64,000 nt of DNA from Naegleria gruberi (taxonomy: Eukaryota): NCBI GenBank assembly GCA_000004985.1, contig GG738908.1, one strand, 5' to 3'. The position numbers and the translations under genes are program-made. This document shows, in pieces, positions 1,736 through 33,028 of this stretch. The number at the start of each line of letters is the position of its first letter. Positions within the stretch are counted from its first letter, which is position 1. A model generated the notes under the pieces. It was given only the letters and a program-made list of their open reading frames with translations. It ran no database searches and was not told the DNA's origin.

Positions 1736-1827
1736 ACTCTTTTTTAAATTATATATTTTAAATATATTATTATATTTTATAAATATTAATTTATATTGTT
1801 AATATATTATTATATTATTAATAATTA

Positions 1828-2484
1828 TTATATAATTAAAATTAAATTAATAAATATAACATACATTAATAAAGCAATATTTAAAATAACCCATATAAGT
1901 AAAATAATTCTAAAAGCACATATAATTCTCTTTCTCTTTTCATGATCTTTTGCCCATGCACCATAATTATCTAATCTAAATTTTTGATCTCTTTCACCAA
2001 GTTTACAACAACAACAAGAACCAATTGAATAAAACAATGCACCTAAAAAACAACAAAATTCAACAAGTAAAATTCCTAAACAAATTAAACCTAATGCACC
2101 ATATGCACCAATACCTTCAGCATAATCAACTAACATTGATATAGCTGTTTGATTAGAAATATCAAAATTTGTAATTACTTTAGGTGCTGAACGTGTATCT
2201 AATTTCCTTGTTCCATAATTGTATAATGTTAATCTAGGTAATACTGATACTAATTTTACAATATTCTTATCAATACCTGTTCCTAAATTAAATATTGCTG
2301 ATGATAAGGATTCAATACCTTTATTCATAATAGAATCTCTTAATGATGAATATTCATTACTAGTTGCAATTACACCTGTACTTTCTGTACTTTCTGTATA
2401 TTGTACGTTAAATGTTAATAATATTAATACTATTAACATTATGGAATATATTAATATATTATTATAGATTGATAACCTTTTCAT
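1828..2484 (-). CDS. small membrane protein (218 aa) with an N-terminal signal/anchor and a C-terminal cluster of transmembrane segments including a CCCC motif; function unknown
   Basis: Complete ORF with start and stop. Hydrophobic N-terminus (LIYSIMLIVLILLTF) and C-terminal hydrophobic segments (GALGLICLGILLVEFCCFLGALFYSIGSCCCC, IILLIWVILNIALLMYVIFINLILII). Confidence 0.4.
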   Translation of the reverse strand: MKRLSIYNNILIYSIMLIVLILLTFNVQYTESTESTGVIATSNEYSSLRDSIMNKGIESLSSAIFNLGTGIDKNIVKLVSVLPRLTLYNYGTRKLDTRSAPKVITNFDISNQTAISMLVDYAEGIGAYGALGLICLGILLVEFCCFLGALFYSIGSCCCCKLGERDQKFRLDNYGAWAKDHEKRKRIICAFRIILLIWVILNIALLMYVIFINLILII

Positions 2485-3987: not shown

Positions 3988-4180
3988 AGGTTTTAGTGTT
4001 AGACTTAGATTTTCGTTCAGAGAAATGAGTTTACATCTGATATTTAAATTTTTATCAATGATGTGTGAGTCAATTTTATATTTTCAATAATATTTTAGTG
4101 CTTCTGCAACAACAAAATAATTTTCAATTTAATTATTGATTTACTCGAAGAAAGAACAATAAAATTATCAAGTTAAAAAA

Positions 4181-7100: not shown

Positions 7101-7771
7101 CACAATTACAAACTAAAATTGAACATTTATCAAGAGATCATTATTTAAATAAGAATGTTTCTTATATTTTATCAGGTTTAATTAAAACAGATCCAAATGC
7201 AAATGTTAAAGATTTTATTGATAATTTAATTTATTTATTTGAATCATGTGGATGTTCTCCATTTGCATCTACAAATGCTCTATTTTTACATGTTATTAGT
7301 GAATTAAAAGGTCCATTTGAAATGAAACAATTTTATTTGGAAATGAAGAGAAATAATTTAATACTTGATATTAGATCATTTAATTTATATTTGGAAGCTT
7401 TATTAAATACTGAAGGTTCAAATTCAATGTGGAAATATTTTAATACTTGTCAAACAAGTACTGAAATTATTAAAATTAATCCAGATATTGATACTCTTCA
7501 TATTTTAATTAGATCTATTAGAGATTTTAATGATATGGAATTTATTTTATCTAAATATAGACAATTTATTGATAGTACTAGATATTTATCACCAAAACTT
7601 TCAAAACAAAAAACATCAAAGAATTCACCACAATTAAAAGAGGAAATTATTTCTTCAATTTTAGATGCAATTGAATCAAAGGAATCATTAATTAATAGTA
7701 ATCAAACTTTTGCAAGAATTGAACAAATGAAAGATTATTTACAAAAGGCTTTATTTTCATTCATTGAATAA
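4181..7771 (+). CDS. pentatricopeptide-repeat (PPR) protein, probably mitochondrial. Two exons, 4181..5180 and 5247..7771, with a 66-nt intron GTAATT...ATATAG. Ser-rich N-terminus and an internal poly-Asn tract.
   Basis: The two ORFs join in frame across a GT..AG intron (KG|GLKKLFENQ...MNELNYLY). There are repeated 35-aa helical PPR-like units (e.g. HCLLVIYAHTGKQDLCENLF, NTLINIYGLLGKLPYMIKHFQ, NAITFTTVIRHLCMNDHFDSALDMFNRMKELNIKPTRVTYKVLLEGM). Confidence 0.7.
5958..6108 (+). repeat. coding trinucleotide microsatellite (AAT/GAT/ATG units) encoding an N/D/M/S-rich low-complexity tract inside the PPR gene
   Basis: Imperfect trinucleotide repeats such as gatatgaat gatatgaat gatagtaat ... aattctaat aattctaat aattctaat. 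Confidence 0.6.
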
Positions 7772-7858
7772 ATAAGTGTTTATGTTTTTATTATTATTAT
7801 TATTATTTTTATTACAAATATTTGTAAATCATTCAATTGATAAGTTTTTTAAACCTCT

Positions 7859-9782
7859 TTATAAATAAGATATCAATAAAATAATTGCTGCAATCATCAA
7901 GGTAGTAGTCAATGAAAATTGAACTGATTGATTTGAATCATTAATCTTTGTACTATTGGCAGCTTTAGTTGATACAATTGGTGTTGTTCCATTATTAGTA
8001 CCATTATTTGATGAAGGATTTGAATCACATGGATAAGTATTTGGAATGACATATCCACTCGTTGTTAATTTGAGTGGTTTGAATCCATAAACATAATTTT
8101 CATAAACCAATTCAATAGACAAGGCAACATAACCTTTAGATGGATTAGGAACAAAAACTTCCCAAATATTTGGAGAAGTTTCAGATAGATTTGATGACTT
8201 GTAAGTTGATCCAATGGTTGAGATACGGAAATCTCTAGCATTAGTATTGTTTGCTCTCCATAGATAGACATTGGTTGGTTTGATGGCACTCCAAACAGTA
8301 ACCTTGACACCAGTGTCATTGTAGATGTGTGTGAAATTGTATTGAGGTAGATCAATTCCCTTAACTTGCATATAGTAGAATAATAAAACTGATTCTATTG
8401 CATCTGAATTGGAAAGTGAGTGTCCAGTATTTGGAATGTAACGTAAATATTTCTTTTTAATATTATTCATGTAAGGCCAACTCTTTAAAGCAAGATCTAT
8501 TCGATTAATCATGTAAACATATTAATTATATCAATTCATGAATATATAAAGTTATAACACACTTACCTGGCCACATAAATTCATCACCAAGAGCATTAAT
8601 CATATAAATTGAATGATTAGAAAATCTTTCTCTATATGCAAATGGATCTTCAACTGATTGTAAAGCAGTAAATGCAGCAGAATCAACTCTCTTCAAAACA
8701 CCTTGAGAATTGTAATCATATAAAGCAATTGGCCAAGCACAAAGTGATTTGTTAATTTGAAGAAAACTTTCTTTCAAATTCAAAACTTGAATACTCAAAG
8801 GAACGAGTGCTTTAACACGAGGATCAGCAGCTCCAACCAACCAAGCTAATTTATCACATTTTAATATAAATTGTAACAATTATTGTAAACTTACCAGCCC
8901 AACCTATTATTTTCAAAATTTCAATATTTCAATAAATTTAACACACATACCTCTTTTAGAACCTCCACCAATTGTAAACTTTGAAATTGAAACTCCATTC
9001 AATTTGTAAATAAAATCCTGAACAACATCCATAGCTCTCATTGAAGTTTTTGCCATTGGTAAATGACCCAACCATTCATAAGTTTTCACATCAATTGGTA
9101 AATTTGCTGATGATTTATTCTCATATCTATCCATGAATGCATTCCATGTGTAGGCAATGAGTGAATCTTCACTACGTGCTGTTTTACTTGGATCAGATGA
9201 AAATATAATTGGTTGATTGGGAACAATGTAAACTTGTGAAGTGATGGAATTAGTGGAATAGGCAAGTGATTTTAACATGTCATTGGTGGTTGGCATTGAT
9301 GTGGAAGAAGAACCTCCTTCAATATATAAAAATGATTCATTATAGTTGGTGTTGAGATTATTTGGAACCACAATGGCTAGATAATGTTTCCTTTTTAGTA
9401 GTATACATTATTATTGTAATAATATTCAATAGTATTATTATATTGTAAATAATGAAATAGGATAGAAATAACAAACATACCATTGTGATGAAGAACCCAA
9501 TTCTTCACTTGTTAACCAATCAACTCCTCTAATAGAGAGAGTATACATAACACCCACATCCAATGTAGTTGTTGCCAATAAAGTATAATTCATTGCAGGT
9601 GATGATAAATTTACATAGTCATCAATTATTGCTGCACTCACACACAAGGAAAATAGAGCAGCAACAATAAAGAATGCACCAATGATGAAGGTATATTTAA
9701 TGACCCGTTGGTTATTTGGTTCATGCATTTTTTTCTTTTTGTTAATAATCAACGAGGATGGCAATGAATTGAAAAAAGTCAA
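7859..9782 (-). CDS. PhoPQ-activated pathogenicity-related protein family member (AprA-like secreted/membrane-anchored protein). Exons 9782..9481, 9390..8951, a 9-nt microexon 8903..8895, 8845..8567 and 8496..7859. The start may instead be the ATG at 9728.
   Basis: All introns are GT..AG and 47-90 nt long (donors GTATGT/GTAAGT). Family motifs are ...FTIGGGSKRGWAAWLVGAADPRV... and ...GDEFMWPDLALKSWP... The N-terminal signal anchor is IIGAFFIVAALFSLCVSAA and the C-terminus is hydrophobic (GPI/TM-like). Confidence 0.7.
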
Positions 9783-14341: not shown

Positions 14342-15779
14342 ATGTCAGCAGCAAATAGTAGTGATGATACAACAACAACAACAGGAAATAATTTATTTCC
14401 ATTGATAAATCATTTGGATCAGGTAAAACAAGCTATCGGATCAGATACTGATGATTTTAAATTCATGACTCAGGATAATTATCTATTCTATTGTTATGGG
14501 AGGGTGAAGACTACAACATTTCCATCAATTGAAAGTGGTGATGATGAACAAATTCAGGATATGAAAAAGATTAGAAGGGAAATTAGAGGGTTAGCCTTTG
14601 ACAAGGATAGTGGAAAGTTGGTGAGCAGATGTTTACACAAGTTTTTTAATTGTAAGTATTTATTTATTACTCTTTATTGTAAACTAAATAATAATATTTG
14701 GAAATATTTGAAAAATTATTGCAATTTTAATAGTGGATGAAAATGCAGAAACAAATACAGAATATTTAGAAAACAAGTATAATCCAAATGGTGATTGTAA
14801 TTTATTGGATATTTTCCTTGTTTTAGAAAAGTTGGATGGTTCAATGATTATGCCAATTATTGTCGATGGTAAAATTGTGTTTAGAACTAAAAGAGGTTAT
14901 TTTAATCAAGTTACAAATCAAGCAGATAAATTTGTAGCTGAATCTCAAGTGAAATATTTGGAATTTTGTACAAAATTAATGAAAGAAGGATATACACCAA
15001 TATTTGAATTTTATTCGAAAGAGAATATGGTGGTAATTGAATATGATTCAACATTTTTGACTTTAATTGCAATTAGATATACAGAAAAGGGAGATTATGT
15101 ACCATACAATGAAATGTGTGAAATGTGTAATGAATTTTCTATTCCATTTGTGAAATGTATTTTCAGTAATACTGACCAAGATGAACAATCCAAAAAGACA
15201 GTTATCAAATCATTCAAACAATTGAAGAGCAAAGTGAATACAATCAAAGGTATTGAGGGAGTTGTCATTCGTCACAAAGTTTCAGGTGAAATGTTTAAAT
15301 TCAAAACCAATTGGTATTCTGAACAACACAAAAAGAAACAACTTGTTACTGATGGTAATCCATCACCAGCACATATTTGGAAATTTGTAATGGATGATTG
15401 TATTGATGATATCATTCCAGTTTTAAATACTGAAAAGGAAAAGCAAGAATTGAGAAGGTTTAACGATGAGGTCTTGAATGCTATTGATGATTGTGCTAAA
15501 AGATCTTTGGAAATTATTGAATTTGCAATGAATTTAGGAAGCGCAAAAGAAACAGCAAGTTACATTGCCCAGGAATCAGGTCATAATACTATTTTCAAAA
15601 AGATTGTTTACAAAATCAAAACAGAAATTGACAAGAAGACTAATCAGCAAGACTACATGTCACCTCAAGATGTTGTGAAATATTTCCTTTTACAATTTAT
15701 TTTCAAGGATTTGAATTTGGTGAAGGAATGTTTAAACACTCCAGACTTGGTTTACACAAATTACAAAATTACAAATTGA
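14342..15779 (+). CDS. T4 Rnl1-family ATP-dependent RNA ligase (stand-alone adenylyltransferase/ligase domain, about 447 aa). Two exons, 14342..14651 and 14734..15779, with an 82-nt intron GTAAGT...TTTTAATAG.
   Basis: Colinear with T4 RNA ligase 1: IRGLAFDKDSGKLVSRCLHKFFNLDEN (T4: [30 protein letters not shown]); motif I lysine adenylation site LEKLDGSMI (T4 LTKEDGSLV); FEFYSKENMVV (T4 FEFVAPTNRIV); motifs IV-V EGVVIRHKVSGEMFKFKTNWY (T4 [20 protein letters not shown]). Confidence 0.75.
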
Positions 15780-19200: not shown

Positions 19201-20159
19201 TCAAAACAATTCAAATTACAATTAGTTTGTTCTATGTGAGAACGTCAGAATTGGTCATGAGTACAGAAAGGATCATGTATACACTCACCAAGGCAAGAAA
19301 CTCATTTAATTGTGTTCAAAGAGTTCAAAAGTTTTCAAATTCCATTCAAGAAGAAAATTATGGAGATGACAAAAAGTCTCTCGTCCAAGAAACTTCAAAC
19401 GAAGGATTGAGTGTCAGTTTTGATAATATTTCTATGAGGTATCGAGAGGAACAAGATTTAGTGATCAGGAATGTAACGTTTAGTGTTGCTCCTGGTAGTA
19501 AATGTGCAATTATTGGTAGAACAGCAAGTGGAAAATCCTCATTATTCAATTGCTTGTTAAGGTTTCAAGAAATTGAGAATGATAATAATAACAGTGGTAT
19601 CTATTTGAATGGAACAGATGTGAGGGATCTTTCATTACATGCTTTAAGAACATCAATTTCTTTCATTCCTCAATCTCCAGTGCTATTTTTGGGAACTTTG
19701 AGAGAAAACCTTGACTTTAATAATTCTAATAGTGATGAGGAAATTTGGAGTGCCATTGAACAGGTTGGACTTTCAGAGTTGTTGGAAAGAAAGGTCTGTA
19801 AAGAGAGTCAATCCATGCCAAATATTAAGGAAATACTAGACTATTCAATTTCTGAAAATGGAAGCAACTTTTCATGTGGAGAAAAACAATTAATATGCTT
19901 GGCTAGAAGTATTTTGAAAAAATCCAAATTACTTTTAATGGATGAAGCCACAGCCAATGTTGACTCATTCACCGATTCTCAAATTCAAAAGACTCTTCGT
20001 GGTCCACTATTCAACAATTGTACCATCATTACCATCGCTCACAGAATTGAAACTGTTAAAGATTATGATAGAATCATCTTGATGAAATTGGGAGAAATTG
20101 AAATGAATGACACTCCATCTCAAGTTTTACAATACTATGTAGAGAATTACAATCAATAA
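16242..20159 (+). CDS. ABC transporter, subfamily C (MRP-like) full transporter without TMD0: two TMDs and two NBDs
   Basis: NBD1 has Walker A GKVASGKSS, signature LSGGQKTRLALARALY and Walker B LYIFDDILSAVD. NBD2 has Walker A GRTASGKSS, a degenerate signature FSCGEKQLICLARSIL and Walker B LLLMDEATANVD. There is an acidic linker between NBD1 and TMD2. Confidence 0.85.
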   Translation: MVLGTIIKEFKDNIFCSWIWPDLLDPIKNQSSKGFKVFEKENLNVREATKDEEAYYEYQFKLIKEATAGMEFNADDADGGDDSKKETDSTMSISQTVVLLHRLVGWVLIQMIGATLLMQLCDSVALYMKRRVFELFEQENIQSSELLWFATFYLMIEFIFKNLNKFSENYYYMKKDYGQTIISNSMQSMVLRKLSKLSYIQKLTNFNFGIVDTILGQDVWSVNSNIYDLPNFYSHIFYILLCILAIYDLVGFKATMIGVLFLFVSSPLYYHFLKKREANYDGNTKLCDKKSSTLSQFIQSIRLIKIYTLENRFVEKICKIQESFKTNLKSTEWLNFIIDAIYYVQSFVVSSLCFFIYCYIDGNPLKLSTALTVVELADSLKYPLYAISSDLQSIMNKRLAIRRLGHLLNSPEHSQHKNHTDSSIVEMENVSARWSQSEEDDPNYCIQNVSTTIKKGEHIGIIGKVASGKSSLIYTILNESHIVEGVVRIKENLKISFVSQSPWIRNATIKENIIFGSTNFDKSRYESALFAADFKSDVEEMQNGDDQVIGERGINLSGGQKTRLALARALYHNSDLYIFDDILSAVDIHTAANIIKRVFVGENAFLKDKTVILSTHLLKLIPHMDRTIVMDKGRIVLQGNYDFLVGKLEENVALRELFESATHSVNSNVEENQNPSKDEALDDEEEEGDEGEPEEDELSESSSDMSQSEGPSFSLIRQFLFSINKSTIYLSVMAAFSLLEPVSGIFKDYTLSEWSTDEKFVYHSLTFYLIIYISQGFVQMFAITLNTMISNTFLYELADVFQEKLIKQISRTKLRYFEDIPSGKILDNIGYVNEIRDNISYRMTDLLTNTWQAICSTIVVIYSFPLSILMLFVSVPITSYFRGIYTNVSDKIELIQSDFHDPTPTISAEMLDGLDTIRSYGNEKFEHLINDINTQKKPINTLSHCKELAWFWFYIRNDFFRELISSLSVLGIFFYYFWNYDPNNANLKTIQITISLFYVRTSELVMSTERIMYTLTKARNSFNCVQRVQKFSNSIQEENYGDDKKSLVQETSNEGLSVSFDNISMRYREEQDLVIRNVTFSVAPGSKCAIIGRTASGKSSLFNCLLRFQEIENDNNNSGIYLNGTDVRDLSLHALRTSISFIPQSPVLFLGTLRENLDFNNSNSDEEIWSAIEQVGLSELLERKVCKESQSMPNIKEILDYSISENGSNFSCGEKQLICLARSILKKSKLLLMDEATANVDSFTDSQIQKTLRGPLFNNCTIITIAHRIETVKDYDRIILMKLGEIEMNDTPSQVLQYYVENYNQ

Positions 20160-20266
20160 AAAACATGCATAGCACTCTTAATATATTAAATTATTGCTTA
20201 ACATCCAATTTATGTAAACCTCTAGATGTGAATGTTATAACAAGAAACTATTCTTAATGAATGTAA

Positions 20267-20340
20267 GCCGTCATAGCTCAGTTGGATAGAGCACAGGACT
20301 TCTAATCCTGGGGTCGTGGGTTCGAGCCCCATTGTCGGTA
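20267..20340 (+). tRNA. tRNA-Arg (anticodon UCU)
   Basis: Acceptor GCCGTCA/TGTCGGT (one T-T mismatch plus G-U), D-arm GCTC-AGTTGGATA-GAGC, anticodon loop CTTCTAA, T-arm GTGGG-TTCGAGC-CCCAT. Close to human tRNA-Arg-TCT. Confidence 0.8.
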
Positions 20341-20456
20341 AATGTTTTAATTTTTACTCTCAGATTCATGTGGAAAATTCAATCAGGATTACAATAGTAC
20401 AATATGGATTAAGGTGATTTTTGTAGGAGTGTTAAGGTGATCTTCCTTAATGTGCT

Positions 20457-20527
20457 CGTCTCGTGGTGTAATGGTAGCATAGTGGACTTTGAATCCATTG
20501 ACGGAGGTTCGATTCCTCCCGAGACGG
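20457..20527 (+). tRNA. tRNA-Gln (anticodon UUG)
   Basis: Acceptor CGTCTCG/CGAGACG, TGGTGTAATGGT D-arm typical of tRNA-Gln, anticodon loop CTTTGAA, T-arm GGAGG-TTCGATT-CCTCC. Confidence 0.85.
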
Positions 20528-20924
20528 TAAACGTGGCGAGCCATAGAATTTTATTTAATATATTTCATTATAGCTTGATGTACACCCTTTGATAATGGAT
20601 TCGAATGAATAATTGTAAAATCGAGTCGATTCATCGAATTAATTTTGTGAAACAAATAGTAAGGACTGAAATAGGTAATCTGTTGAGCTGGTTATTCAAG
20701 TCAATCACAGTTGTCTGATTATTGGATATCATTAGACCAGGTGTAATTCTCCTCACTGCTAACCAGCTTTCATGAAACTCGTCACAGAGCTTGGTTTCAA
20801 TTTTATGTGTGTTGAATTGATCATCTATTCAATTCTTTCTTATTTCCAGTCTAAAATTATTTCATAAATTATTTACAAAATATTTATTATTACAATTATA
20901 ATATATTATTAATTATTATCTAAA

Positions 20925-21317
20925 TTATCCCCATGCAATTTTAAGAGAATAATTAATCACGAGCATTCCGTTTGTATTAAAGTGATCAAATAAATCACCA
21001 ACGTAATCATCAGGATTTGGACAAAAAGCCTGTCCACAATATAAAAACAAAGTTTGGTTTGGATTTGTAATCCTCAGCAGTTTATCTCGGAGAAAGGCTA
21101 TCACAGTATTAAAAGAACTTGCTGCACCAATAGTATACTTCTTCTTTTTCAAAATTGGAGCACTACCAACGGCTTGGAATAAAATCATTACTTTTCCACT
21201 TTCAACTTTTTCTGTTGTTGTTGTTGGAGTTGTAGCTTCGTTGGTGTTTGATAATGTTTCCGAAGATGCATCAGTATCATTTGATGATAATTGTTGATCA
21301 ACAGCACTTGAAGACAT
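20925..21317 (-). CDS. atg12: ubiquitin-like autophagy protein Atg12
   Basis: 130 aa ending in ...LVINYSLKIAWG with a terminal Gly before the stop. The core KVMILFQAVGSAPILKKKKYTI...FLYCGQAFCPNPDDYVGDLFDHFNTNG matches the Atg12 ubiquitin fold. Confidence 0.8.
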   Translation of the reverse strand: MSSSAVDQQLSSNDTDASSETLSNTNEATTPTTTTEKVESGKVMILFQAVGSAPILKKKKYTIGAASSFNTVIAFLRDKLLRITNPNQTLFLYCGQAFCPNPDDYVGDLFDHFNTNGMLVINYSLKIAWG

Positions 21318-21444
21318 TTTTTAATTATTATTCTAAAACAATTCTAATTGGAATGTTTTTAGATTTTAAATCACACATTTAAAAAGTTAAATAATACTAT
21401 TCGATGAAAGAATATATTTGCATATTTTACTTGATGTGAATATC

Positions 21445-22635
21445 TTACAAGGAATGTTCGGCAGCAAATTGTTCATCCTCATCGTGTTCAGCTTCTCTGA
21501 CAAAAATAAAGAGGGCTCTTCCTTCAATTGAAGACAATGTTTGAGAATCATCAAATGGAATAGGTCTCTTAGGGAATGAGTTTAAGGTTAATTCATAGTC
21601 GGTTTCAACATTGCTATATCTGGATGGTTGCCATTCAGTTGAAGGGTAAGCATGGATAAATCTGTGAAGATCACCAAATGACAAATCCAAAGAGAATTTT
21701 CTTTGCACTTCTGTTCCATTTGGTAATTTCAATTTGATATTCTTATATTCTGCTTCATTGTTGTAAAATACAATTTCATTTCTAATGTCATTACGTGTCG
21801 ATTCATTGATTCTTAATTTTTTCATAAAAGCATCAACCTTGGCTTGCCTTTCTCTCTCCACTGCTAATCTCTTTTCTTCCTTTTCTCTGTCAATTCTTAA
21901 GGATTCCTCGTATGCTCTGTCTTGTTCTTCTCTTGCCCTTCTTTCATATTCTCTTTGAAGTTTTTCTTGTCTTTGAATTACCAATTGAGAATCCAAACGT
22001 TCATGCACTTCAATTAATTGAGTCATTAAATTATCAATTACATGAGTTTGACCATTTGACATTTCTGTTAAATTTTTCAATTCAGTCAAACCATCCATTC
22101 TCCAATGTACTTGATTTCCCAATAAAACAGCCAAGAAAGGATAAGATGTTGCTTGTAATTGATTAGAAATACTATATCCTTCACTGGATCTGATTGAACT
22201 TGAAAAAACTACAAAGTTAGTATTTAAAAATTCAATAAATTCCTTTTTACAAAATATGTTTTGAATAAAATCATAACTATCGTCATGTCCAGGTGAATGT
22301 AAATATACAAGTAGAATTTGATCATTATTTTTACAGAAATCAATAGCTTCTTTGAATGATTTGTCAAATAATTGTGGAATCAATTCATGAATGCTGGTTG
22401 TAATATGTTCTTCGTTTACGGTTTCATTATGTTGAGTAAGTATTTCTTCTACTGAAGGTAGATGTGATATAATATCCACAATTAAATCCTGTAATGACTG
22501 ATTATTTTGAGCAATGGCTTGTTGTTGTATTTGTTCTCTTACCACAGTTTCACTTGGATTTGCAGCGAATTTAAAAGGTAAATAGCTAACAAATGTATTA
22601 TACAGCCAACTAAATATACTATAGAGGAAACTCAT
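21445..22635 (-). CDS. FAF2/UBXD8-like protein: thioredoxin-like UAS domain, coiled coil and C-terminal UBX domain
   Basis: UAS-like segment (ILLVYLHSPGHDDSYDFIQNIFCKKEFIEFLNTNFVVF), an ER-rich coiled coil (QREYERRAREEQDRAYEESLRIDREKEEKRLAVERERQAK) and a UBX-like C-terminus (IKLKLPNGTEVQRKFSLDLSFGDLHRFI). Confidence 0.7.
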   Translation of the reverse strand: MSFLYSIFSWLYNTFVSYLPFKFAANPSETVVREQIQQQAIAQNNQSLQDLIVDIISHLPSVEEILTQHNETVNEEHITTSIHELIPQLFDKSFKEAIDFCKNNDQILLVYLHSPGHDDSYDFIQNIFCKKEFIEFLNTNFVVFSSSIRSSEGYSISNQLQATSYPFLAVLLGNQVHWRMDGLTELKNLTEMSNGQTHVIDNLMTQLIEVHERLDSQLVIQRQEKLQREYERRAREEQDRAYEESLRIDREKEEKRLAVERERQAKVDAFMKKLRINESTRNDIRNEIVFYNNEAEYKNIKLKLPNGTEVQRKFSLDLSFGDLHRFIHAYPSTEWQPSRYSNVETDYELTLNSFPKRPIPFDDSQTLSSIEGRALFIFVREAEHDEDEQFAAEHSL

Positions 22636-23213
22636 TCTTGATCAAATTGTTATTTAAATTATCAAAGCCTTCCGAACAAGAAAACAAGAAAACAACTTTG
22701 TTGGTAATCGGAATTTTTTTTAGAATAAAAAAGTTATTTTTAAAATCATTAATAAATTAATGAATCATCACGTTGATTATGAAAATTTATTACAAAGATG
22801 ATGTAAGCAAATTCAATATGACAGAACATCATTGTTCTCAAGTTTGTTCAATCATAAAAGCACTTAGTGTGGTTGCATCCTAATTTTCTATTTAAAAGGA
22901 GTTCTCAAGAGATATCATCCGACACACAACATTAGCCTTCATATTTACATTTGGATAACAAAGTTTTTAATAGAAAAACTAAAATTGAAATAGGCTTCCA
23001 TACAATAAGAACCGCCTCCATCATTCACTATCAATTTTAAGCCATCCTCTTAACTACTACAACAATTTAATATCATCTTTATTTTGGTTATCATCTTACC
23101 TTCATTCTGTTGCTGCATTTTCGAATTGAAAAAAAAATATTGAAAGCAATAACTTTGTTATCATCACTTATTTTCATCATACATTCTCCATAGTAATACA
23201 TTAACGGAATTTA

Positions 23214-24272
23214 TTGGACAGAATGACTTCGGATTCGTTTAAAATTCTACCAATGAACCTTGGTTTAATTTCTATTCAAAGAAAACAGTTTCATTTCTAT
23301 AGCAAGGCTTTGCTGAAAACGTTATTTGTCAAGTTGGACTCACCAAATAGATTTATTAGTTTTATTGAGACTAGAGATGAAATTTCAATTATTCTTGATG
23401 AGGAAAGTCTTGAAAATGTTAAGAGATATAAAGAAATGATACAATCCTACCAATTGAATATGGATGCAATTTTACTTGAACAAGGTTCCATATGGAGAGG
23501 TATTCTGATACATTCAGTATCATCTAGTGAAAGTGGAAGTTCTAAATCATTATTGGAAAAGTCATCGGCAAGGTCTATTTATCGTTATGCTAGTATTTTG
23601 TCATCCAATAATATTTCAATTTTCTATCATTCACTTTGGAATTTTGATTTATTATTGATTGAAGAAGAAAATTTTGATAAAGCTATGGAATTAATTCAAA
23701 ACAAAGTTGAAAGTGGTTCAGACGAAAAGGAAGAAGAAATTATTCCTCCAAGTTTATTCCAAAGAAAGAGAGAAGAAATTGAGGGAGAAGAAGAAAATTA
23801 TGAATCGGATGAATTGACTGCATTGGATGATAAACTCTTCATGTGTAGATTCTCAGGCACTCAATATCAATATCATATTAAGGATATGTTAAATATTCTG
23901 TGGTTTGAATATAAGCAAATTGGAGACTTTTTTGCTCTGGCATCATTTGAAGATGAAAATGTAATAGTGTTAAATGAACAAGTTTATGAAATGCTTGGTT
24001 TGGAGGATACAGAACAAGAATGCACGGCTATGATAGAAACTATTCCATTGAAATTCGTTCCAGTAATGATTCATACTACAGAGGGTCTTGGATTTGATGA
24101 AGCTCAAATTGGTGTTGTGTCAAAATTAACAGGAAGTTTACTGAGCCACCCTGAAAAAATAGCAGTCATTTACTTTTCAACTTTTGTGACTGATTACTTG
24201 CTTATTCAAGAAGAAAAAGTAGAAAGTGCCCTAGAACACATTAAGCAAAAATTAGAAATTACAGATAAATAG
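23214..24272 (+). CDS. CASTOR/GATS-family ACT-domain protein (homologue of the cytosolic arginine sensor for mTORC1)
   Basis: Colinear similarity to human CASTOR1: FISFIETRDEISIILDEESLENV vs FFSLTETPEDYTLMVDEEGFKEL; C-terminal LGFDEAQIGVVSKLTGSLLSHPEKIAVIYFSTFVTDYLLIQEEKVESALEHIKQK vs LGFDECGIVAQIAGPLAAADISAYYISTFNFDHALVPEDGIGSVIEVLQRR. Confidence 0.65.
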   Translation: MDRMTSDSFKILPMNLGLISIQRKQFHFYSKALLKTLFVKLDSPNRFISFIETRDEISIILDEESLENVKRYKEMIQSYQLNMDAILLEQGSIWRGILIHSVSSSESGSSKSLLEKSSARSIYRYASILSSNNISIFYHSLWNFDLLLIEEENFDKAMELIQNKVESGSDEKEEEIIPPSLFQRKREEIEGEEENYESDELTALDDKLFMCRFSGTQYQYHIKDMLNILWFEYKQIGDFFALASFEDENVIVLNEQVYEMLGLEDTEQECTAMIETIPLKFVPVMIHTTEGLGFDEAQIGVVSKLTGSLLSHPEKIAVIYFSTFVTDYLLIQEEKVESALEHIKQKLEITDK

Positions 24273-24300
24273 ATTACAATAGTTCTTGTGATTAAGATCT

Positions 24301-25521
24301 TTATTTGTTATCATTAAACATGTGCTTTCTTTCAGGGTCTATACCTTCATAAACCATACTCTTTTCGATGGTTTTAACAAATTGGATACCTTTTTGAATT
24401 TCCAAACTCTTTTGCAAAAATTGAATAAATCTTTCATCAGAAATGAAACAATCTGGTGTGATACGTTTCTTTTGATTTTTAACAAGGTCATAATGCTTAA
24501 AAATCCAATACAGAATTTCTAAAGCAAAATCCTTGTCAAATTCAACTTTAAACATGTTACAACCTTGAGTTACAGTCCAACTGCAATAATAACATTGCTT
24601 AGTATTGGTTGCTATCATTTGAAGATACATTTGAGGAATGTAATAAACTGGAACTTCTTCATGGGGTTTCTTCTTAATGTAGGAAAAGGTGAGTGGAATA
24701 TCTCTACCTGACTCACGGTCCTCCTTCTTGACATACTTTTCAACAAAGCATGTTGGACACTTAATTTCTACACATGAATGAATTTCATTAGTATCAATAG
24801 ATTGTAAAAGACCATCTGGGGATGCACCAAGAGCTGGCAACTTTTCAAAGCTCAGTTCATACTTTTCCAAATCTTCCTTTGTAAAAACTTGATTTAATCT
24901 ATCTTCAGTAATGATATAAAATCCAGTTTCACAAAACATGTCATAGTCAAAATGAGAATTCAAAATAGTTGAAACACAATTGAGTTCATGATTAGATCCC
25001 CAATCCATAAAAACTCTCTTAACAATTTCCTCCTTTGGATTTTCATTGGATGGTTGTTTAAGTTGATCAATTTCCTCATCTGTCATACCCAACTCTTTCA
25101 ATTCATCCCTTGTTAAAATTGATTCATAAATTGTACCAACAGTTTCCTTGTCTTGTTTTAAAAATGATTTTGATAAATCTAACATTTTCACAGCTGCAGG
25201 AGAAAAGAATCCGAGAGCTTTACTCAACCTAGAGGCAGTAATTCTATTTGATCTCAACTCGAGCCATTTATCACTTCTTTGTGGAAATAAATGACAATTA
25301 TTTTCATCAATAGGTTCATTAGGAGGATTCAATGGCACATATCTATTAACATAAATTTCCTTGATATCTTCATAGTAAAGTGCTTTCCATTTCACGTTTG
25401 GATTCTCTCCGTTAAATTTGTTATTGTTCTTTTCTTGATGGATTGATAATTTTTCAATACTTTCAACTAGACTTTGCTCATCGGAATGATCAATATGTTC
25501 TTCTTCGAATTGTTGAGACAT
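24301..25521 (-). CDS. YqaJ/lambda-exonuclease-like PD-(D/E)XK nuclease domain protein (viral recombinase-type exonuclease) with an N-terminal acidic extension
   Basis: Motifs RITASRLSKALG (YqaJ motif I), GASPDGLLQS and EIKCPTC (the SPDG ... E-x-K-C-P catalytic core shared by lambda Exo, YqaJ and herpes alkaline nuclease). Convergent with the CASTOR-like gene; only 28 nt separate the two stop codons. Confidence 0.65.
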   Translation of the reverse strand: MSQQFEEEHIDHSDEQSLVESIEKLSIHQEKNNNKFNGENPNVKWKALYYEDIKEIYVNRYVPLNPPNEPIDENNCHLFPQRSDKWLELRSNRITASRLSKALGFFSPAAVKMLDLSKSFLKQDKETVGTIYESILTRDELKELGMTDEEIDQLKQPSNENPKEEIVKRVFMDWGSNHELNCVSTILNSHFDYDMFCETGFYIITEDRLNQVFTKEDLEKYELSFEKLPALGASPDGLLQSIDTNEIHSCVEIKCPTCFVEKYVKKEDRESGRDIPLTFSYIKKKPHEEVPVYYIPQMYLQMIATNTKQCYYCSWTVTQGCNMFKVEFDKDFALEILYWIFKHYDLVKNQKKRITPDCFISDERFIQFLQKSLEIQKGIQFVKTIEKSMVYEGIDPERKHMFNDNK

Positions 25522-25641
25522 TTTTTTGTGGTGATTTTACAAAAATTCTTGTTGTTCAATAAACAACTAGAATTATTGATGTAACAATACAAAATTTTGT
25601 GACATGATATAAAATTATAATGAATAAATCTGTTAATTTAC

Positions 25642-27166
25642 TTAGTAAGTGAAGGAGAGCAAACCTGTTGTTAAACCTGCTCCTGTACCAATCAAAAGCA
25701 CTCTGTCACCTCTCTTAATTCTGCCATCTTGAACTGCTTCATAGAGAGCCATAGGTATGGATGCAGAAATAGTATTACCAAACTTTTCCAAAGTCTTTAC
25801 AATTCTATCTTTTGGCCATCCAAAGATTTCAGACTGTGTGAGTGAATTATTGTTAAATATGTGAGAAACCGTCCACATAAAGTATTAACTTACCATTGCG
25901 TGGAATGCAGCATGAGAGGCTTGATGAGGCACAGCCCAATCAAATCCTTCGAATTTTCCTGTTGATAATCCTTCTTGGTAATCTTCCATAACTCTAATCA
26001 TTTTAGAAATTGTAAACTCCAAAATCTTTTTTCCGTTCATATCGAAATACATATAATTTGAAGGTGTGTAAATGTGATTAGGGTGGAATTCACTACCACC
26101 AGATCTAATTGATGTATAATCTGTTCCGTCACTAAATGTTCCAAACATGTATTTAGTAAGACGACTCTTATCTTCTGGTTTACTCTTTGTCAAAACTACT
26201 GCAGCAGCTCCGTCACCGATTAAACCTCCAGCATCTGAAATGTTCGATTAAAATGTGAAAAAATTGAAATACTTACGTGGATTTTGTTCAAAATTCAAAC
26301 CAACAGTACTGATTTCGGTTGAGACAATCAAAATTTTTTCATACATTCCACTTTCAATCAAACCAGCACACATGTGGAAGGCAACCATGAATGATAAGCA
26401 TGTAGAATGTACAGAAAGTGATGGTTTTCCTGAATCACCCAATCCCAATTCCTTATGAATGAAACATGAGGTATCTAGAATGAAATTGTGTGAAAAAGTG
26501 TTATCTTTTCTAAAACTTACCTGGAATAGTTCTTTGAGGAGTACCTGATGCATTAACAATTAAATCCAAATCTTCAACCTTCAAATTAGCATTTTTCAAA
26601 GCTTCCAAAGCAGCTTGAGCTCCCATCCATGAAATTGTAATTTCCTTGTCTTTCAATTCTTTGATTTCCTTTTCAGTTAGTACTTTCTTTGTATCAATAA
26701 ATTGATCTACATTCTTTGCAAACTTCTCCTTTCTAACTGTAAGAACGTGTTCTACAGAATTAGCCCATCTTCTCTCTTTGATTCCAGTTGTTTTTTCAGT
26801 AAATCCCTTTGGTTTACCACACAAAACATCAATTGTGGTAGATGAAACAATATTTGGAGGAAGATAACGACCCACTCCAGCAATTTTAACTTTTAAATCC
26901 AACTCTTTAGGATACAATTTGATATGGGTATCTTCTTCTTCTTCTTCCTCTTCTTCTTGTTTTCCACTACATGTATTGAAGGCTACATGTTGATCCGAAC
27001 ATCCAAAACTATTACCACAATCCAATTTTTGAGTTGGGAATAATTGTTGTAATAACATTTTGGTTCTTCTCTCCTTTGTAGTGTTATTATTGCAACATGA
27101 TGAAGAAAATAGTTCATCACCAGAACCTCCTGCAGTGCTATTCTTATTGTGGTGGTTACAGTTCAT
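25642..27166 (-). CDS. 3-oxoacyl-ACP synthase III (FabH/KAS III)-like condensing enzyme with an ~85-aa eukaryote-specific N-terminal extension. Exons 27166..26521, 26474..26277, 26234..25894 and 25833..25642; introns of 46, 42 and 60 nt.
   Basis: FabH N-terminus KVKIAGVGRYLPPNIVSS. Catalytic Cys in GDSGKPSLSVHSTCLSFMVAF, His in FDWAVPHQASHAAFHAM, Asn in FGNTISASIPMAL. C-terminal GDRVLLIGTGAGLTTG. All introns are GTAAGT...AG and the phases are consistent. Confidence 0.75.
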
Positions 27167-27646
27167 TATCCGGCTATTGTTTTGTGATTTTGATTGTTGT
27201 GAGCAAACGTTTGGGTGATTTTTTTGCTAAACTTATTGTTAACACGGAGTGATAGCAACAAATTTCCTGTTGTTGTTACTTGTTCGTTGTGTCTTCTACT
27301 TGGAATTGTCCCGTGTGTGATGACTTCTCATTGTGATATTGTTCTTTTAAAAGGTTCAAATACAAGAAATTTACTAGTAGTGGCAAGTTGAGGAAATTGG
27401 AAGGACGGAAATAAGGAGTTGATCGGAATAAATTTCATGAATGGATTGCTATTGAATGGTTCTTTATTACGGTATGTAACATTCTGTGATAAATCAATAA
27501 AAGACACTCGTCTTTCTAGTTTTACTGCAATATTTCACTACCTCAATATAATATTTCCTTTAAAGTTTTCCCTCCAAAGTTTTGTAATCGAAGGAAAAAT
27601 TTCCTCAATCAACTGGATATTTTGATTTTGTGTGTAACGGTAACAA

Positions 27647-27656
27647 AATTCCCGCC
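27647..27656 (+). promoter_or_regulatory. E2F-like motif (aATTCCCGCC) about 60 bp upstream of the SNF2/PICH-like ATPase start codon
   Basis: Isolated GC-rich TTCCCGCC element in otherwise AT-rich 5' flank. The same motif class occurs upstream of centrin and beta-tubulin in this window. Confidence 0.3.
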
Positions 27657-27711
27657 ATTCAATCCTCTTTTTGTTTTTAATTAACAGCATTTAATAAAGT
27701 CTTAAGAAAAA

Positions 27712-30700
27712 ATGGAAACTCTAGATATTGAAAATGATATCATTCCAACTATCAAATCGAGAACAAAGAAAAGAGCTTCTAAATCTTCAATTCCTCTCCA
27801 AGACATTACTCAAAAAGTGTTGAACAAGGGAAATGTGATTGCTAAGCAATGCGATGAAGATTATTCGAAAGGTAAAAAGGCGTTAAAAAGGGAATCAGAT
27901 GATGAAGAAATTGCTTCTCCAATCCCAATCAAATCTAGAATGCCAACGAGAAAGCCTTTGAACAAGAATACTGTTGAGGCAAAGCAACCTAAGAGAAAGA
28001 TCTCCCTTCCTTTAATTTCTTCCTCGGATGAAGAAGATGATTTTGAAGAATTCAAACAAACTAAGAGAGTAATAAGGAGAACAACAAGACCTCCAAAGAA
28101 GGTGAAGTTTGAAGAAAGTAGTGGTTCAGAGTTTGAGGAAAGCAGCCCTCAAGTAGTGTTCGATATTAGCAGTGATGAAGATAGTGTTGAGATTTTCAAA
28201 TCTGAGAAGAAGGAAATTATAAAGAAGGAAGTGGTTTTATCTGAGAGTGAAGAAAGCAGTGCTGATGAAGAAGCAGAAGAACAAGATGAGGAACTAATGT
28301 TAGATGAAGAGGAGGACTTTACTTCATCCTCCTCTGAAGAAGATTCGGAAGATGATGATTATCAACCAAAGAAAAGCAAGCCTCAAAGGAAAGCTGCTTC
28401 CAAACCTGTTGCTCCCAAGCCAAGAAAGAATGAAAGGGTTCTCTCTGATGATGAAATGGGCTCTGAAGAGGAAACCAAAGAAAAGCCAAAGGTTACTCTC
28501 ACTATTAAGAAAAAGAAAACTCCTGGCGAATTGAGACAATCTGAGAATGGTTGGTGCTTTGATGTGAAGAATGATCATTACGTTCTCAAGATTGGTGATG
28601 ATACTTACGGTTTTGCTCTATCTGCTGATATATTCGAAAAGCTCTACTCTCACCAACAGATCGGAGTTAAATGGTTAGTTGAGAGACATTTTGCTTCATC
28701 TTTAAAAGGTGGTTTATTAGCAGATGATATGGGACTTGGTAAGACAATTCAAATTTCCTCATTCATTCATGGTTTGTTTCTAACTCAGAAAGCTTCAAGA
28801 GTATTGGTAATTTGTCCAAACTCAGTGGTAGGAAATTGGCAGGTAAGTTACTGTTTTTTTTAATGAAATGTAATTCCATAACAGAAAGAGTTAGAAAAGT
28901 GGGGAGGCGATCAGATTAAGGGTGTTGTTATTTTCCACCAAGTTGGCAAAGCATCTTCAACAAACAGAAAGAGACAAGGTTTTGTAAAGGAGTTTGAGAA
29001 GTATGCAAAACAGGGCGGTGCTGTCATGTTGTCCACCTATCAAACCATAGCAAACCATGTTGAATATCTATCAAAATCCTTTTCAGGTGACAAACTTTTG
29101 GATTCGATCATCATAGATGAAGCCCACAAAATTAAGAATAAGGATGCCAAATGCTCAATGGCTTTGAAAACTCTTGGATCTGCCTCAAAGTTTGGTCTTA
29201 CTGGCACTCCCATAATGAACAAGTTGGTAAGTCATTTTTCAAGTACAGTTACTAATCTGTTTTCCCATCCAATGTACAATAGACTGAATTGTATTCTATT
29301 TACTCTTGGTGTTTTGGAGAAGATTTGCTTGGATCGGTATCAGAGTTCAGTTCCAATTATTCCACACCAATTAATCAGAGCACAAGAAGGGATGCAAACT
29401 ATACTCAAAAAATGGCTGGAAACAGAGCAGCAGATGATTTGAGAGAATTGGTTAAGCCATACCTTTTGATGAGAGGGAAAAACGCAGTCCTTACCATAGA
29501 TAAGAATTTATACAAGTCATCAAGCAACACAAGTGCTAAAATAGGTCAAAAGAATGATCTGATTGTTTGGTGCAAGCTCACTGATGAACAACAACATTGG
29601 TATAAGGAATATCTATCATCTGATGACGTCAAACAAGTGCTTAATAAGACTATGAGTGCCCTTGTTGGTATAGTTATTTTGAAGCAAGTTTGTAATCATG
29701 CCATTATGTGTAGTGGTTATGACGAAATAATGAAGAAAAAGAAAAAAGAACTTGAAGAGGAGGCAAAAGAAGACTTTGGAGCAGACAGCAGCGATGAAGA
29801 TTTCATTGAGGAGAGTGAAGTAGCTCCTTCCATGTCCTTTGATATGGATGATTTAGATGATAAACAGAGAAAAGCAATGGAAAGAAGGCTTAAAAAGATT
29901 CAAGACGATTTGATTAAGGAAAGAATCAGAAATGAACCAATCGAACAATTGATATCTTCTTCCGTTAAAGCACAATTGGTAAAGCACCTTGTTGAGAAAT
30001 GCAACGAAGAAGGACATAGGGTATTGATATTTTCTCAATACACAAGAATGTTGGACATTATTGGACATGTTTTAAAAAGTATGAAGGTAAAATTCAATAG
30101 AATTGATGGAAGTGTTACAAGACACCAAGACAGAACCCAATTGGTGGACGAGTTCAATGAAAATGAGAAGATTAAGTGCTTTATTCTAAGCTCTCAGGTA
30201 TGTTTGGTTTAAATTTATGGAGCTAACAATAATTCGTACAGGCGGGAGGTGTTGGACTTAACCTTGTTTCAGCTTCAAGAGTTATTATTGTTGATGCAAA
30301 CTTTAATCCATCCATAGATGAACAATCAGTTGACCGATGTTACAGAATTGGTCAAAAAGAGAATGTGATTGTTTATAGATTGATTTCAGCAGGTACAATT
30401 GAGGAATATATTTACAAAAGGTAAGTTAAAATCAAATTACTAATTCTTACCACTACGACAGACAAGTAAGCAAGACAACCGTATCTAGAACAGCAACTAT
30501 TGCGTCAAATCAATACAGATATTTGTCTCATGCAGATCTAGAAGAAATGTTCACCCTTAAAAAAACAAGTCATAGTGAAACATGCTCCAGAATGAATAGA
30601 ATTCACTCCAAAGATAGAAGAGATTGTGATGGGCTTGAGGAGCATATTGAAAGTTTGAAGCAAATGGAAAACGTTGTTGGCATATCAGATCATGATGTAT

Positions 30701-31782: not shown

Positions 31783-33028
31783 CTATGCTCTCCTATATTT
31801 AATGATATATTCAGGATAACATTGACATTTGTCATAAACAATAAATTCTCTATAAGAATGAATAGAAGTATTAGAATGTCCAATAACACTGTCATAAACT
31901 CTCTTATTTGTAAAACTAATTTCTGGGGGTCTTCTTATTAGTCATTCCGTTTGGAGTAAAATAAGTTTGTTTTCCCAACACAACTCTACATAACAAGATT
32001 GTGAATTCATTATTTGAGTCTGGTGTACAATATTGATCTGATTTTGAACAATATTCGGCAAAATAAATACCAGCTCCAAATAATCCACTCAAACTTGCAA
32101 CTCTTTCATCAGATCCATGCTCAGTAATTGCTTGAACGTATTCAGGTTTAGTTCCATGCCATAAATATTTTTCATTCATATCAGAATTCAATCCACTATT
32201 TTTCATCCATTCGAATGCTGTTGATGATTTTGGAATTTCTTCAGTTTTAACTTGAATATAGTTTGGAGGATCTTGATATGATTGTAAATGATTAACTCTT
32301 GCTGCAAAAGATGAAAATAAAGAATAATTTTCCACTCTATGAACACTTGAAACTATTAATTTAGAATAAAATGCTTTTTGAATCTGATCTCTACCTGATC
32401 CGAGTGTACGGGTGTTACATGTGGAATTCATAATTTCTTGTACAATATCTTTCAAATATTGTGAAACATCAATTACATAATATCTTGAAGTGAATGATAA
32501 GAAAGTATTATTCTTCCAATAACTTGGAAGTGAAACAATTAATTGTTGTGATTGGGTTGATGGTTGAAACACCTTCTCAATCAACCATTGAACACTTGAA
32601 TAATGTCCATTGACTTGAACAATGGATGAATAATTTGATTTCTCATCACTTTTAACACCCAAATATAATTGACTGTTGAGATTGATCAGAGAAACTGAAT
32701 TATGATCACATTTCTTGACAATCCATTGGTAATTTTTCCAAGCAGGATTATCCCATTGAATGATAGAAACTCCCTCATTCATATATCCATTGTCAGCACA
32801 AACATATTTACCGCTGGCTTCACATTTGATGAGAACAATTAGATCATTCTGGTTGTTTCCTGTATCACTACTTTTTATCAAGACAAATTGACTACGACTG
32901 ACACTTGGATTCTCCCATAATTGAAAATAGGCTCCATTATTTGAAAAATCACTAGAAATATTCAAATATTTCCCACTGTTAACATTTTTAATAGTAACAG
33001 GTGTGTTTAATAGTGCTTGAACATGCAT
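31783..33028 (-). CDS. ricin-B lectin (beta-trefoil) plus PARP-type ADP-ribosyltransferase catalytic domain protein. Intact ORF 31916..33028. The catalytic C-terminus, including the Glu motif, continues in the +2 frame down to a stop at 31783..31785 after a 1-nt frameshift at a G5/C5 homopolymer (31925..31929).
   Basis: N-terminal QxW repeats (FQLWENP, IIQWDNP, YQWIV, VQWLIEK). PARP signature YLWHGTKPEYVQAITEHG...GLFGAGIYFAEYCSKSDQYC...ILLCRVVLGK. The downstream frame encodes FTNKRVYDSVIGHSNTSIHSYREFIVYDKCQCYPEYIIKYRRA*, matching the tankyrase C-terminus HSVTG...[21 protein letters not shown]. Removing one C from the CCCCC run fuses the two frames. Confidence 0.7.

Follow-up and report, generated by a model that had tools for sequence, protein, structure and literature searches.

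We analyzed a 64,000-nt stretch of Naegleria gruberi DNA (NCBI GenBank assembly GCA_000004985.1, contig GG738908.1; referred to here as the window). On its minus strand, at positions 24301 to 25521, lies an intronless gene for a nuclease of the YqaJ/lambda exonuclease (lambda Exo) type, which converges on a CASTOR-like gene. The features of the locus are listed below by window position, with residue numbers referring to the nuclease. Structural features are from an AlphaFold2 (AF2) model, with local confidence given as the predicted local distance difference test score (pLDDT). HMM stands for hidden Markov model, NES for nuclear export signal, and PHI for a hydrophobic residue.

24301..25521, minus strand: complete intronless coding sequence of the YqaJ/lambda Exo-type nuclease (ATG start, 406 codons plus the stop codon at 24301-24303)
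25420..25521, minus strand: acidic disordered N-terminal tail, residues 1-34 (pLDDT 46-62)
25441..25470, minus strand: NES-like helix LVESIEKLSI, residues 18-27, with PHI-x3-PHI-x2-PHI-x-PHI spacing (PKI type)
25270..25419, minus strand: family-specific N-terminal module, residues 35-84 (pLDDT 95-98)
25210..25281, minus strand: YqaJ motif I, QRSDKWLELRSNRITASRLSKALG, residues 81-104 (aligned by HMM with lambda Exo residues 14-42)
25012..25209, minus strand: helical insertion, residues 105-170 (helices at 108-155 in the AF2 model)
24535..25011, minus strand: PD-(D/E)XK catalytic core, residues 171-329
24985-24987, minus strand: core codon E179 (WGSNHE)
24814-24816, minus strand: core codon D236 (GASPDG)
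24766-24768 and 24760-24762, minus strand: core codons E252 and K254 (EIKCP)
24631-24633, minus strand: core codon Q297 (YYIPQMYLQM)
24304..24534, minus strand: family-specific C-terminal extension, residues 330-406 (two long helices and a strand, then a terminal K-x-x-F-x-D)
24273..24300: spacer of 28 nt separating the nuclease stop codon from that of the CASTOR-like gene
23214-24272, plus strand: CASTOR-like gene (ACT_7/Castor1_N domains), convergent with the nuclease gene

The nuclease open reading frame (ORF) was identical over its full length (100%) to an NCBI entry, "predicted protein [Naegleria gruberi]." The intronless model, also proposed in an earlier reading made from the letters alone (the sequence-only reading), is therefore that of the public annotation. 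A pseudogene reading of the ORF was rejected. Pfam assigned the protein to YqaJ (PF09588; E = 2.5e-11; 44.5 bits against a gathering cutoff of 22), as the sequence-only reading had anticipated, and the match covered profile positions 1 to 149 of 150, spread over residues 85 to 307. The lambda-exonuclease family TIGR03033 was matched at E = 1.4e-11, which is under the curated NCBIfam cutoff of 68 bits (a stricter, subfamily-level cutoff), and PHROGs returned RecE-like recombination exonuclease and "exonuclease" families. As a single sequence, the nuclease had no phmmer match in the PDB. Matches there required a family profile built from 41 relatives, which retrieved lambda exonuclease (E = 5e-12), Laribacter LHK-Exo (7.7e-12), and mimivirus R354 (6e-4). 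The motifs quoted previously are all present, namely, RITASRLSKALG at residues 93 to 104, ASPDG at 233 to 237, and EIKCP at 252 to 256. Every property by which the YqaJ/lambda-exonuclease family can be recognized computationally (HMM match, catalytic set, motif I, and fold) was found, and the family call is confirmed far beyond chance. The call is correct, concerns a protein already in databases, and will not surprise specialists. Public databases already assign the YqaJ domain automatically, as seen in the name of the Naegleria lovaniensis orthologue ("YqaJ viral recombinase domain-containing protein"), and the gene itself is therefore not new.

Regarding the active site, profile alignment placed E179, D236, E252, K254, and Q297 on lambda Exo E85, D119, E129, K131, and Q157, respectively. 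No substitution of these catalytic residues was seen in alignments containing 6, 41, and 137 sequences, except that E179 was present in 136 of the 137. Motif I contains Q81, W86, R90, T95, and S97, all invariant in the Naegleria clade (as is S234), and its W86-x3-R90...T95-A-S97 pattern aligns with W24...R28...T33-A-S35 of lambda Exo, making R90 the alignment equivalent of Arg-28. In lambda Exo, the 5'-phosphate is bound by Arg-28, which also drives the "electrostatic ratchet" behind processive digestion (PMC11611040). On the evidence of these alignments, the lambda Exo active site and 5'-phosphate pocket are predicted with assurance to be intact, and purifying conservation of the nuclease extends across Vahlkampfiidae and beyond.

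The AF2 model was based on the 41-sequence alignment (pLDDT, 92.3; predicted template modeling score, 0.88) and replaced a model from six sequences that had a pLDDT of 74.8 and low Foldseek TM-scores. In this model, residues 35 to 406 form one globular unit of ~370 residues, and disorder is confined to residues 1 to 34. The predicted fold was closest to solved lambda-Exo-type structures in the fold comparison, with scores of 15.5 for LHK-Exo (2.5 A over 169 residues), 14.6 for lambda Exo, 12.5 for Mimivirus R354, 11.1 for the Haemophilus somnus phage exonuclease, and 10.3 for the Epstein-Barr virus alkaline nuclease. Cas4 (9.5), MGME1 (9.3), Dna2 (9.2), RecE (8.4), and EXO5 (7.0) scored lower. 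A better fit to Dna2 or EXO5, raised by the sequence-only reading as the outcome that would overturn its family call, was thus not found, and the model firmly predicts a lambda-Exo-type fold.

Around this core, the protein carries parts that lambda Exo lacks. The N-terminal module bears the signature F-x-G-x-x-P-N-x-x-W-K (F36, G38, P41, N42, and W45); among 137 family members, G38 was conserved in 118, P41 in 106, N42 in 100, and W45 in 111. It has no lambda Exo counterpart, the lambda Exo alignment beginning at profile position 72. The long acidic N-terminal extension described previously thus divides in two: residues 1 to 34 are indeed acidic and disordered, and residues 35 to 84 are instead a conserved and confidently folded module. 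The helical insertion, which separates motif I from the first catalytic glutamate, is ~40 residues longer than the corresponding region of lambda Exo and varies in length and sequence across the family; the stretching of the 150-position Pfam profile over residues 85 to 307 is evidence for it. The C-terminal extension (~75 amino acids [aa]; pLDDT 95-99 to about residue 395) has no lambda Exo counterpart in the profile alignment, where lambda Exo ends before it. Its F368 and F402 were conserved in 98 and 97 of the 137 members, respectively, and it often ends in F-x-D. In pairwise alignments to the Naegleria protein, it was collinear with proteins of Chloropicon, Ochromonadaceae, and Mesostigma.

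When 1.84 billion cluster representatives were searched exhaustively with HMMER, 1,480 of them matched at E <= 1e-3, with 347 still matching at E <= 1e-10 and 29 matching at E <= 1e-30. Of the top hits, 112 matched the profile from position ~15-50 to ~378 and ended at their own C terminus, so that the apparent "extensions" are in fact modules conserved across the family. Profile searches by word index returned only a few members and names but separated subfamily members (>=185 bits) from generic YqaJ proteins (<=72 bits), and many subfamily members had no precomputed Pfam match at all. The named members, all of them cellular eukaryotes, belong to Heterolobosea, ochrophytes (Phaeothamnion confervicola and Ochromonadaceae sp. 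CCMP2298), and the green lineage (the chlorophyte Chloropicon primus and the streptophyte Mesostigma viride), i.e., to at least three supergroups. One algal-clade member sits between genes for ribosomal protein L10 and the TCP1 chaperonin, which is a eukaryotic nuclear context. Full-length relatives were found neither among the 2.9 million IMG/VR contigs searched with clade-specific motifs (a first scan gave only generic YqaJ matches of ~100 aa, and later scans gave nothing) nor among prokaryotes in a scan of GTDB with one genome per species, where only ~90-residue core matches appeared. A neighbor-joining tree, built without labelled sequences of nucleocytoplasmic large DNA viruses (NCLDV), placed the subfamily apart from generic YqaJ proteins. 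As judged from these sequences, the nuclease belongs to a distinct full-length subfamily defined by the N-terminal module, the helical insertion, and the ~75-aa C-terminal extension. In this decorated subfamily, a lambda-Exo core of ~180 residues lies within a globular unit of ~370 residues; superposition of the nuclease on solved lambda-Exo-clade structures covered only 169 to 194 of the ~370 folded residues. The view of such nucleases as sporadic in eukaryotes does not fit this large subfamily. Two environmental relatives of 751 to 815 aa (P0123 and P0131) show an unusual architecture, in which an N-terminal YqaJ-type nuclease is joined to a C-terminal match to the hnRNP-Q acidic domain (PF18360; above the Pfam cutoff in P0123 only, at 27.7 versus 26 bits).

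Orthologues were found in N. lovaniensis (54% identity), Naegleria fowleri (52%), and Willaertia magna (44%), together with two environmental relatives, and all were intronless. In N. fowleri, the nuclease gene, the convergent CASTOR-like gene, and then a UBX gene occur in the same order and orientation as in N. gruberi; the neighbors of the Willaertia orthologue differ from those in Naegleria. The 28-nt distance between the two stop codons (24273-24300), correctly counted in the sequence-only reading, implies that the two genes overlap, on opposite strands, in their 3' untranslated regions and poly(A) signals. An identical 28-nt stop-to-stop gap separates the N. fowleri pair (L001, 11438-11465). 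The spacer was considered as a conserved element and rejected, as its sequence in N. gruberi cannot be aligned with that in N. fowleri.

Within 15 kb on either side of the nuclease gene are genes for a pyridine-nucleotide oxidoreductase, an RNA ligase, an ABC transporter, a UBX protein, the CASTOR-like protein, a KAS-III-like protein, an SNF2 helicase, and a PARP, all of which are ordinary cellular genes. The G+C content of the nuclease gene (0.318) and that of its third codon positions (GC3, 0.256) were indistinguishable from those of its neighbors. Terminal inverted repeats or long direct repeats were absent from positions 20000 to 30000, no transposase ORF was detected near the gene among the window ORFs and in the domain search, and the domain search of the window found no viral genes within 15 kb on each side. 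The flanking repeats and virus-derived genes that had been suggested as signs of acquisition were therefore not found. No second copy occurs in the window, just one N. gruberi protein was retrieved, and the gene is single copy. Because of the synteny with N. fowleri, the Willaertia orthologue, the host-like GC3, the lack of repeats and transposase, and the lack of viral neighbors, a recent acquisition from a virus or transposon is not supported, contrary to the origin proposed from the sequence alone. RecT, Red-beta, Erf, or Rad52 domains were likewise absent among the neighbors at this locus and at the N. fowleri and Willaertia loci.

Clues to localization come from the N termini. The Naegleria nuclease has no signal or transit peptide, and its acidic N terminus contains no presequence-like basic amphipathic stretch. 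In the Naegleria clade, the N-terminal 30 to 90 residues are acidic or serine rich, disordered, and unalignable except for the NES-like helix. Likewise, the tail of residues 1 to 34 differs greatly in length and sequence from one orthologue to another and is poorly conserved outside this one short amphipathic helix, whose spacing is kept in six of six heterolobosean-clade orthologues with L25 invariant. The AF2 model predicts a helix at residues 15 to 24, inside the disordered tail. The PKI-type pattern is a lead toward a putative nuclear export signal. Given the lack of a targeting peptide and the acidic tail with its NES-like helix, the nuclease probably acts in the nucleus or cytosol.

In the algal-type clade, ~30 of the retrieved members, all belonging to this clade, begin with a hydrophobic signal-peptide-like stretch. 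This leader is followed by a recurrent [FL][VI]PSQ[VA] motif (P0034, P0035, P0036, P0048, P0054, P0055, P0057, P0069, P0070, P0087, P0104, P0126, P0136, P0137, P0144, and P0166), which occurs twice in several of the proteins. We infer that the leader is of the ASAFAP type that directs proteins to complex plastids, and many algal relatives probably act in plastids. The duplication of the motif and the strong conservation of "PSQV" are not accounted for by an ASAFAP-type reading. A tomato protein annotated as a "phage-related exonuclease," Solyc10g081050 (listed against Arabidopsis At1g67660), was identified among the proteins of the chloroplast stroma (PMC10493611).

As inferred from the conserved residues and the fold, the most likely function of the N. 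gruberi nuclease is 5'-phosphate-guided 5'->3' resection of double-stranded DNA (dsDNA) ends. In the mechanism that we propose, E179, D236, and E252 would bind two Mg2+ ions, and K254 would be the lysine that takes part in catalysis. The enzyme would bind a dsDNA end and hydrolyze the 5'-ended strand by two-metal catalysis. The 5'-phosphate would be captured in a pocket formed by R90 (the Arg-28 equivalent) with S97, S234, and Q297, so that digestion would run 5'->3' and leave a 3' single-stranded tail. This tail could feed annealing- or strand-invasion-based repair or recombination; alternatively, linear DNA would simply be destroyed. With no phage-type annealase nearby, any annealing partner would be a host factor.

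Taken jointly, these results favor (with a probability of roughly 0.7) a vertically inherited, single-copy, intronless cellular gene that encodes a catalytically competent lambda-Exo/YqaJ-type PD-(D/E)XK nuclease of the decorated subfamily. Several observations weigh against this interpretation or parts of it. The pairing of exonuclease and annealase that is typical of phages is absent at the locus, there being no nearby Red-beta/RecT/Erf-type partner. In 84 of the 137 family members, a His occupies the position of Arg-28, so that 5'-phosphate ratcheting may not be family-wide. Lambda Exo works as a toroidal trimer enclosing DNA, and the added modules of the Naegleria nuclease, seen in a monomer prediction, could alter substrate access and could sit on or block trimer interfaces. 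The neighbor-joining tree has a star-like backbone in which the deep branches are not resolved. Finally, the top structural matches in BFVD were YqaJ proteins of Pandoravirus salinus (410 aa), a pithovirus, and a medusavirus (414 aa), and the divergent members P0018 and P0180 lie on virus-like contigs of 51 to 81 kb that are dense in ORFans. These two contigs (L003, JGI 3300053785, 51.6 kb; and L013, JGI 3300027820, 80.8 kb) are densely packed, have a G+C content of 32 to 38% (measured for L003), and carry ORFs that nearly all lack a Pfam domain. The Pfam matches were a weak F-box and DUF5661 in L003 and Peptidase_C1 and RING in L013, and a Pfam search of ten L003 ORFs gave nothing diagnostic. 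The contigs may represent uncatalogued giant viruses. Because of these contigs and the pandoravirus and medusavirus structural matches, the subfamily may have an ancient viral origin or a history of exchange between viruses and hosts.

The same observations bear on the alternative that the gene is an endogenized one of Nucleocytoviricota, i.e., that a YqaJ-like recombinase (NCVOG1192) was captured, either by an ancestor of Naegleria and Willaertia or by some earlier eukaryote, and then domesticated. The YqaJ recombinase is widespread in NCLDV (PMC3493329; PMC6450098; bioRxiv 10.64898/2026.07.28.741200). We nevertheless regard this capture as unlikely: no other viral genes accompany the nuclease, the synteny with N. 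fowleri and the host-like composition speak against a recent event, IMG/VR yielded no full-length relative, the family profile matched mimivirus R354 far less well than lambda Exo (E = 6e-4 versus 5e-12), and the named members are cellular eukaryotes from three supergroups. A transposon source, with the nuclease being the YqaJ-domain second ORF of an ISL2EU element (PIF/Harbinger superfamily) or a domesticated copy of it, is extremely improbable. Although the profile weakly matched two animal YqaJ-domain fusion proteins (P0159 and P0161; 62 to 68 bits), animal and transposon-type YqaJ proteins lie outside the subfamily by score (<=72 versus >=185 bits) and lack the N- and C-terminal modules. 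The gene, moreover, has no transposase ORF, terminal inverted repeat, or flanking direct repeat, is single copy, and keeps its position between Naegleria species. Lacking each defining feature of ISL2EU ORF2, it largely refutes that reading.

Two further alternatives concern the type and role of the enzyme. Membership of another PD-(D/E)XK clade (Dna2, EXO5, MGME1, or Cas4-like RecB), which would suggest a flap or single-stranded DNA nuclease in replication or mitochondrial DNA maintenance, is very improbable. It is contradicted by Pfam, which gave YqaJ only and no PDDEXK_1, Exo5, or Dna2 match, by the cysteines (C255 is the sole invariant one, and there is no conserved four-cysteine Fe-S motif), and by the N terminus described above. 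The chemistry might also be as proposed and the role one of defense or clearance, with a cytosolic nuclease destroying linear foreign or leaked dsDNA (e.g., giant-virus genomes or ingested bacterial DNA) rather than serving recombination. Naegleria is a bacterivore and a giant-virus host, the NES-like helix is conserved in all six heterolobosean-clade orthologues within an otherwise unconserved acidic tail, and no annealase partner is encoded nearby, all of which would suit such a role. However, NES-like patterns are frequent by chance in helices, and PADLOC, a prokaryotic library, gave no match to known defense proteins; we consider clearance as the main role distinctly unlikely.

Building on the vertically inherited cellular gene favored above, a broader scenario can be put forward only tentatively and is rather doubtful as a whole. 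The decorated nucleases would form an unnamed ancient clade of enlarged lambda-Exo-type enzymes in cellular eukaryotes (Discoba, Stramenopila, and the green lineage). They would maintain plastid DNA in algae and plants, and in the plastid-less Heterolobosea they would act as a nuclear or cytosolic, NES-bearing enzyme that resects ends or clears foreign DNA without a phage-type annealase. If true, this would place a DNA-end-processing activity outside the canonical Mre11/Exo1/Dna2 set.

Other genes of the window deserve mention. At 14733-15779 (plus strand), ~9 kb from the nuclease gene, is an ORF with a T4 Rnl1-type RNA ligase domain (PF09511, E = 5e-25; PF09414), a second "phage-type" nucleic acid enzyme occurring as a Naegleria cellular gene; it may be the Naegleria RNA ligase that has been studied biochemically. 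Upstream of the nuclease gene are an SNF2/Helicase_C gene (27712-30212, plus strand) with at least one intron and a long acidic, serine-rich N terminus, and a gene (31916-33028, minus strand) whose product combines a PARP catalytic domain with ricin-B lectin repeats. These two are DNA-damage-related genes; their association with the nuclease is one of proximity only. The G+C content falls to 0.16 to 0.22 at window positions 1-2000 and 4001-8000, compared with about 0.32 elsewhere in the window.

Nucleases of the lambda-Exo/YqaJ type are textbook enzymes of phage recombination and serve as tools in recombineering. To our knowledge, their cellular eukaryotic relatives are essentially unstudied. 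In the searchable literature, we found no description of a subfamily in cellular eukaryotes that combines such a distribution with the conserved extra modules reported here, and by their titles and abstracts, none of the papers on YqaJ seemed to address a cellular eukaryotic member. The N. gruberi gene anchors what appears from its sequence to be a well-defined, catalytically intact subfamily with conserved additional modules. If characterized, the subfamily could reveal DNA-end resection in plastids and the use made of such an enzyme by a plastid-less amoeba of a genus that includes the pathogen N. fowleri. It might also supply a eukaryote-adapted resection enzyme for genome engineering.

Compared with lambda Exo (Red-alpha) and LHK-Exo (PDB 3slp/1avq and 3syy), the Naegleria protein is nearly twice as large, adding the N-terminal module (35-84), the insertion (105-170), the extension (330-406), and the disordered acidic tail; its gene is chromosomal and eukaryotic and has no adjacent annealase. 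With YqaJ of the Bacillus subtilis skin element, the namesake of PF09588, it shares the Pfam family. In that element, YqaJ and YqaK have been described as an exonuclease/annealase recombination pair (PMC11610992), whereas no YqaK/RecT-type partner lies nearby in the Naegleria window. Bacterial YqaJ proteins, moreover, lack the N- and C-terminal modules of the subfamily, and prokaryotic genomes matched over ~90 core residues. The Fe-S RecB-like nucleases (Dna2, EXO5, Cas4, and AddB) differ in that neither their four-cysteine motif nor a best fold match to them was found in the nuclease.

The YqaJ proteins of giant viruses (NCVOG1192; P. salinus S4VU67, medusavirus ORF71, and mimivirus R354) are weakly related in sequence (R354, E = 6e-4), and the Naegleria gene, unlike theirs, is set among cellular genes. 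In ISL2EU elements, the ORF for a YqaJ-domain protein is accompanied by a DDE/THAP transposase (PMC4482050). Their ORF2 product is, like the Naegleria nuclease, a eukaryotic YqaJ-domain protein, but it is transposon borne and multicopy, comes with a transposase and terminal inverted repeats, none of which applies to the Naegleria gene, and lies outside the subfamily by score. The plant "phage-related exonuclease" (At1g67660/Solyc10g081050), likened here by description only, is a nuclear-encoded eukaryotic phage-type exonuclease as well. The detection of the tomato protein in the stroma fits the algal leaders and the Chloropicon and Mesostigma members of the subfamily, whereas Naegleria is plastid-less and its protein carries no targeting peptide.

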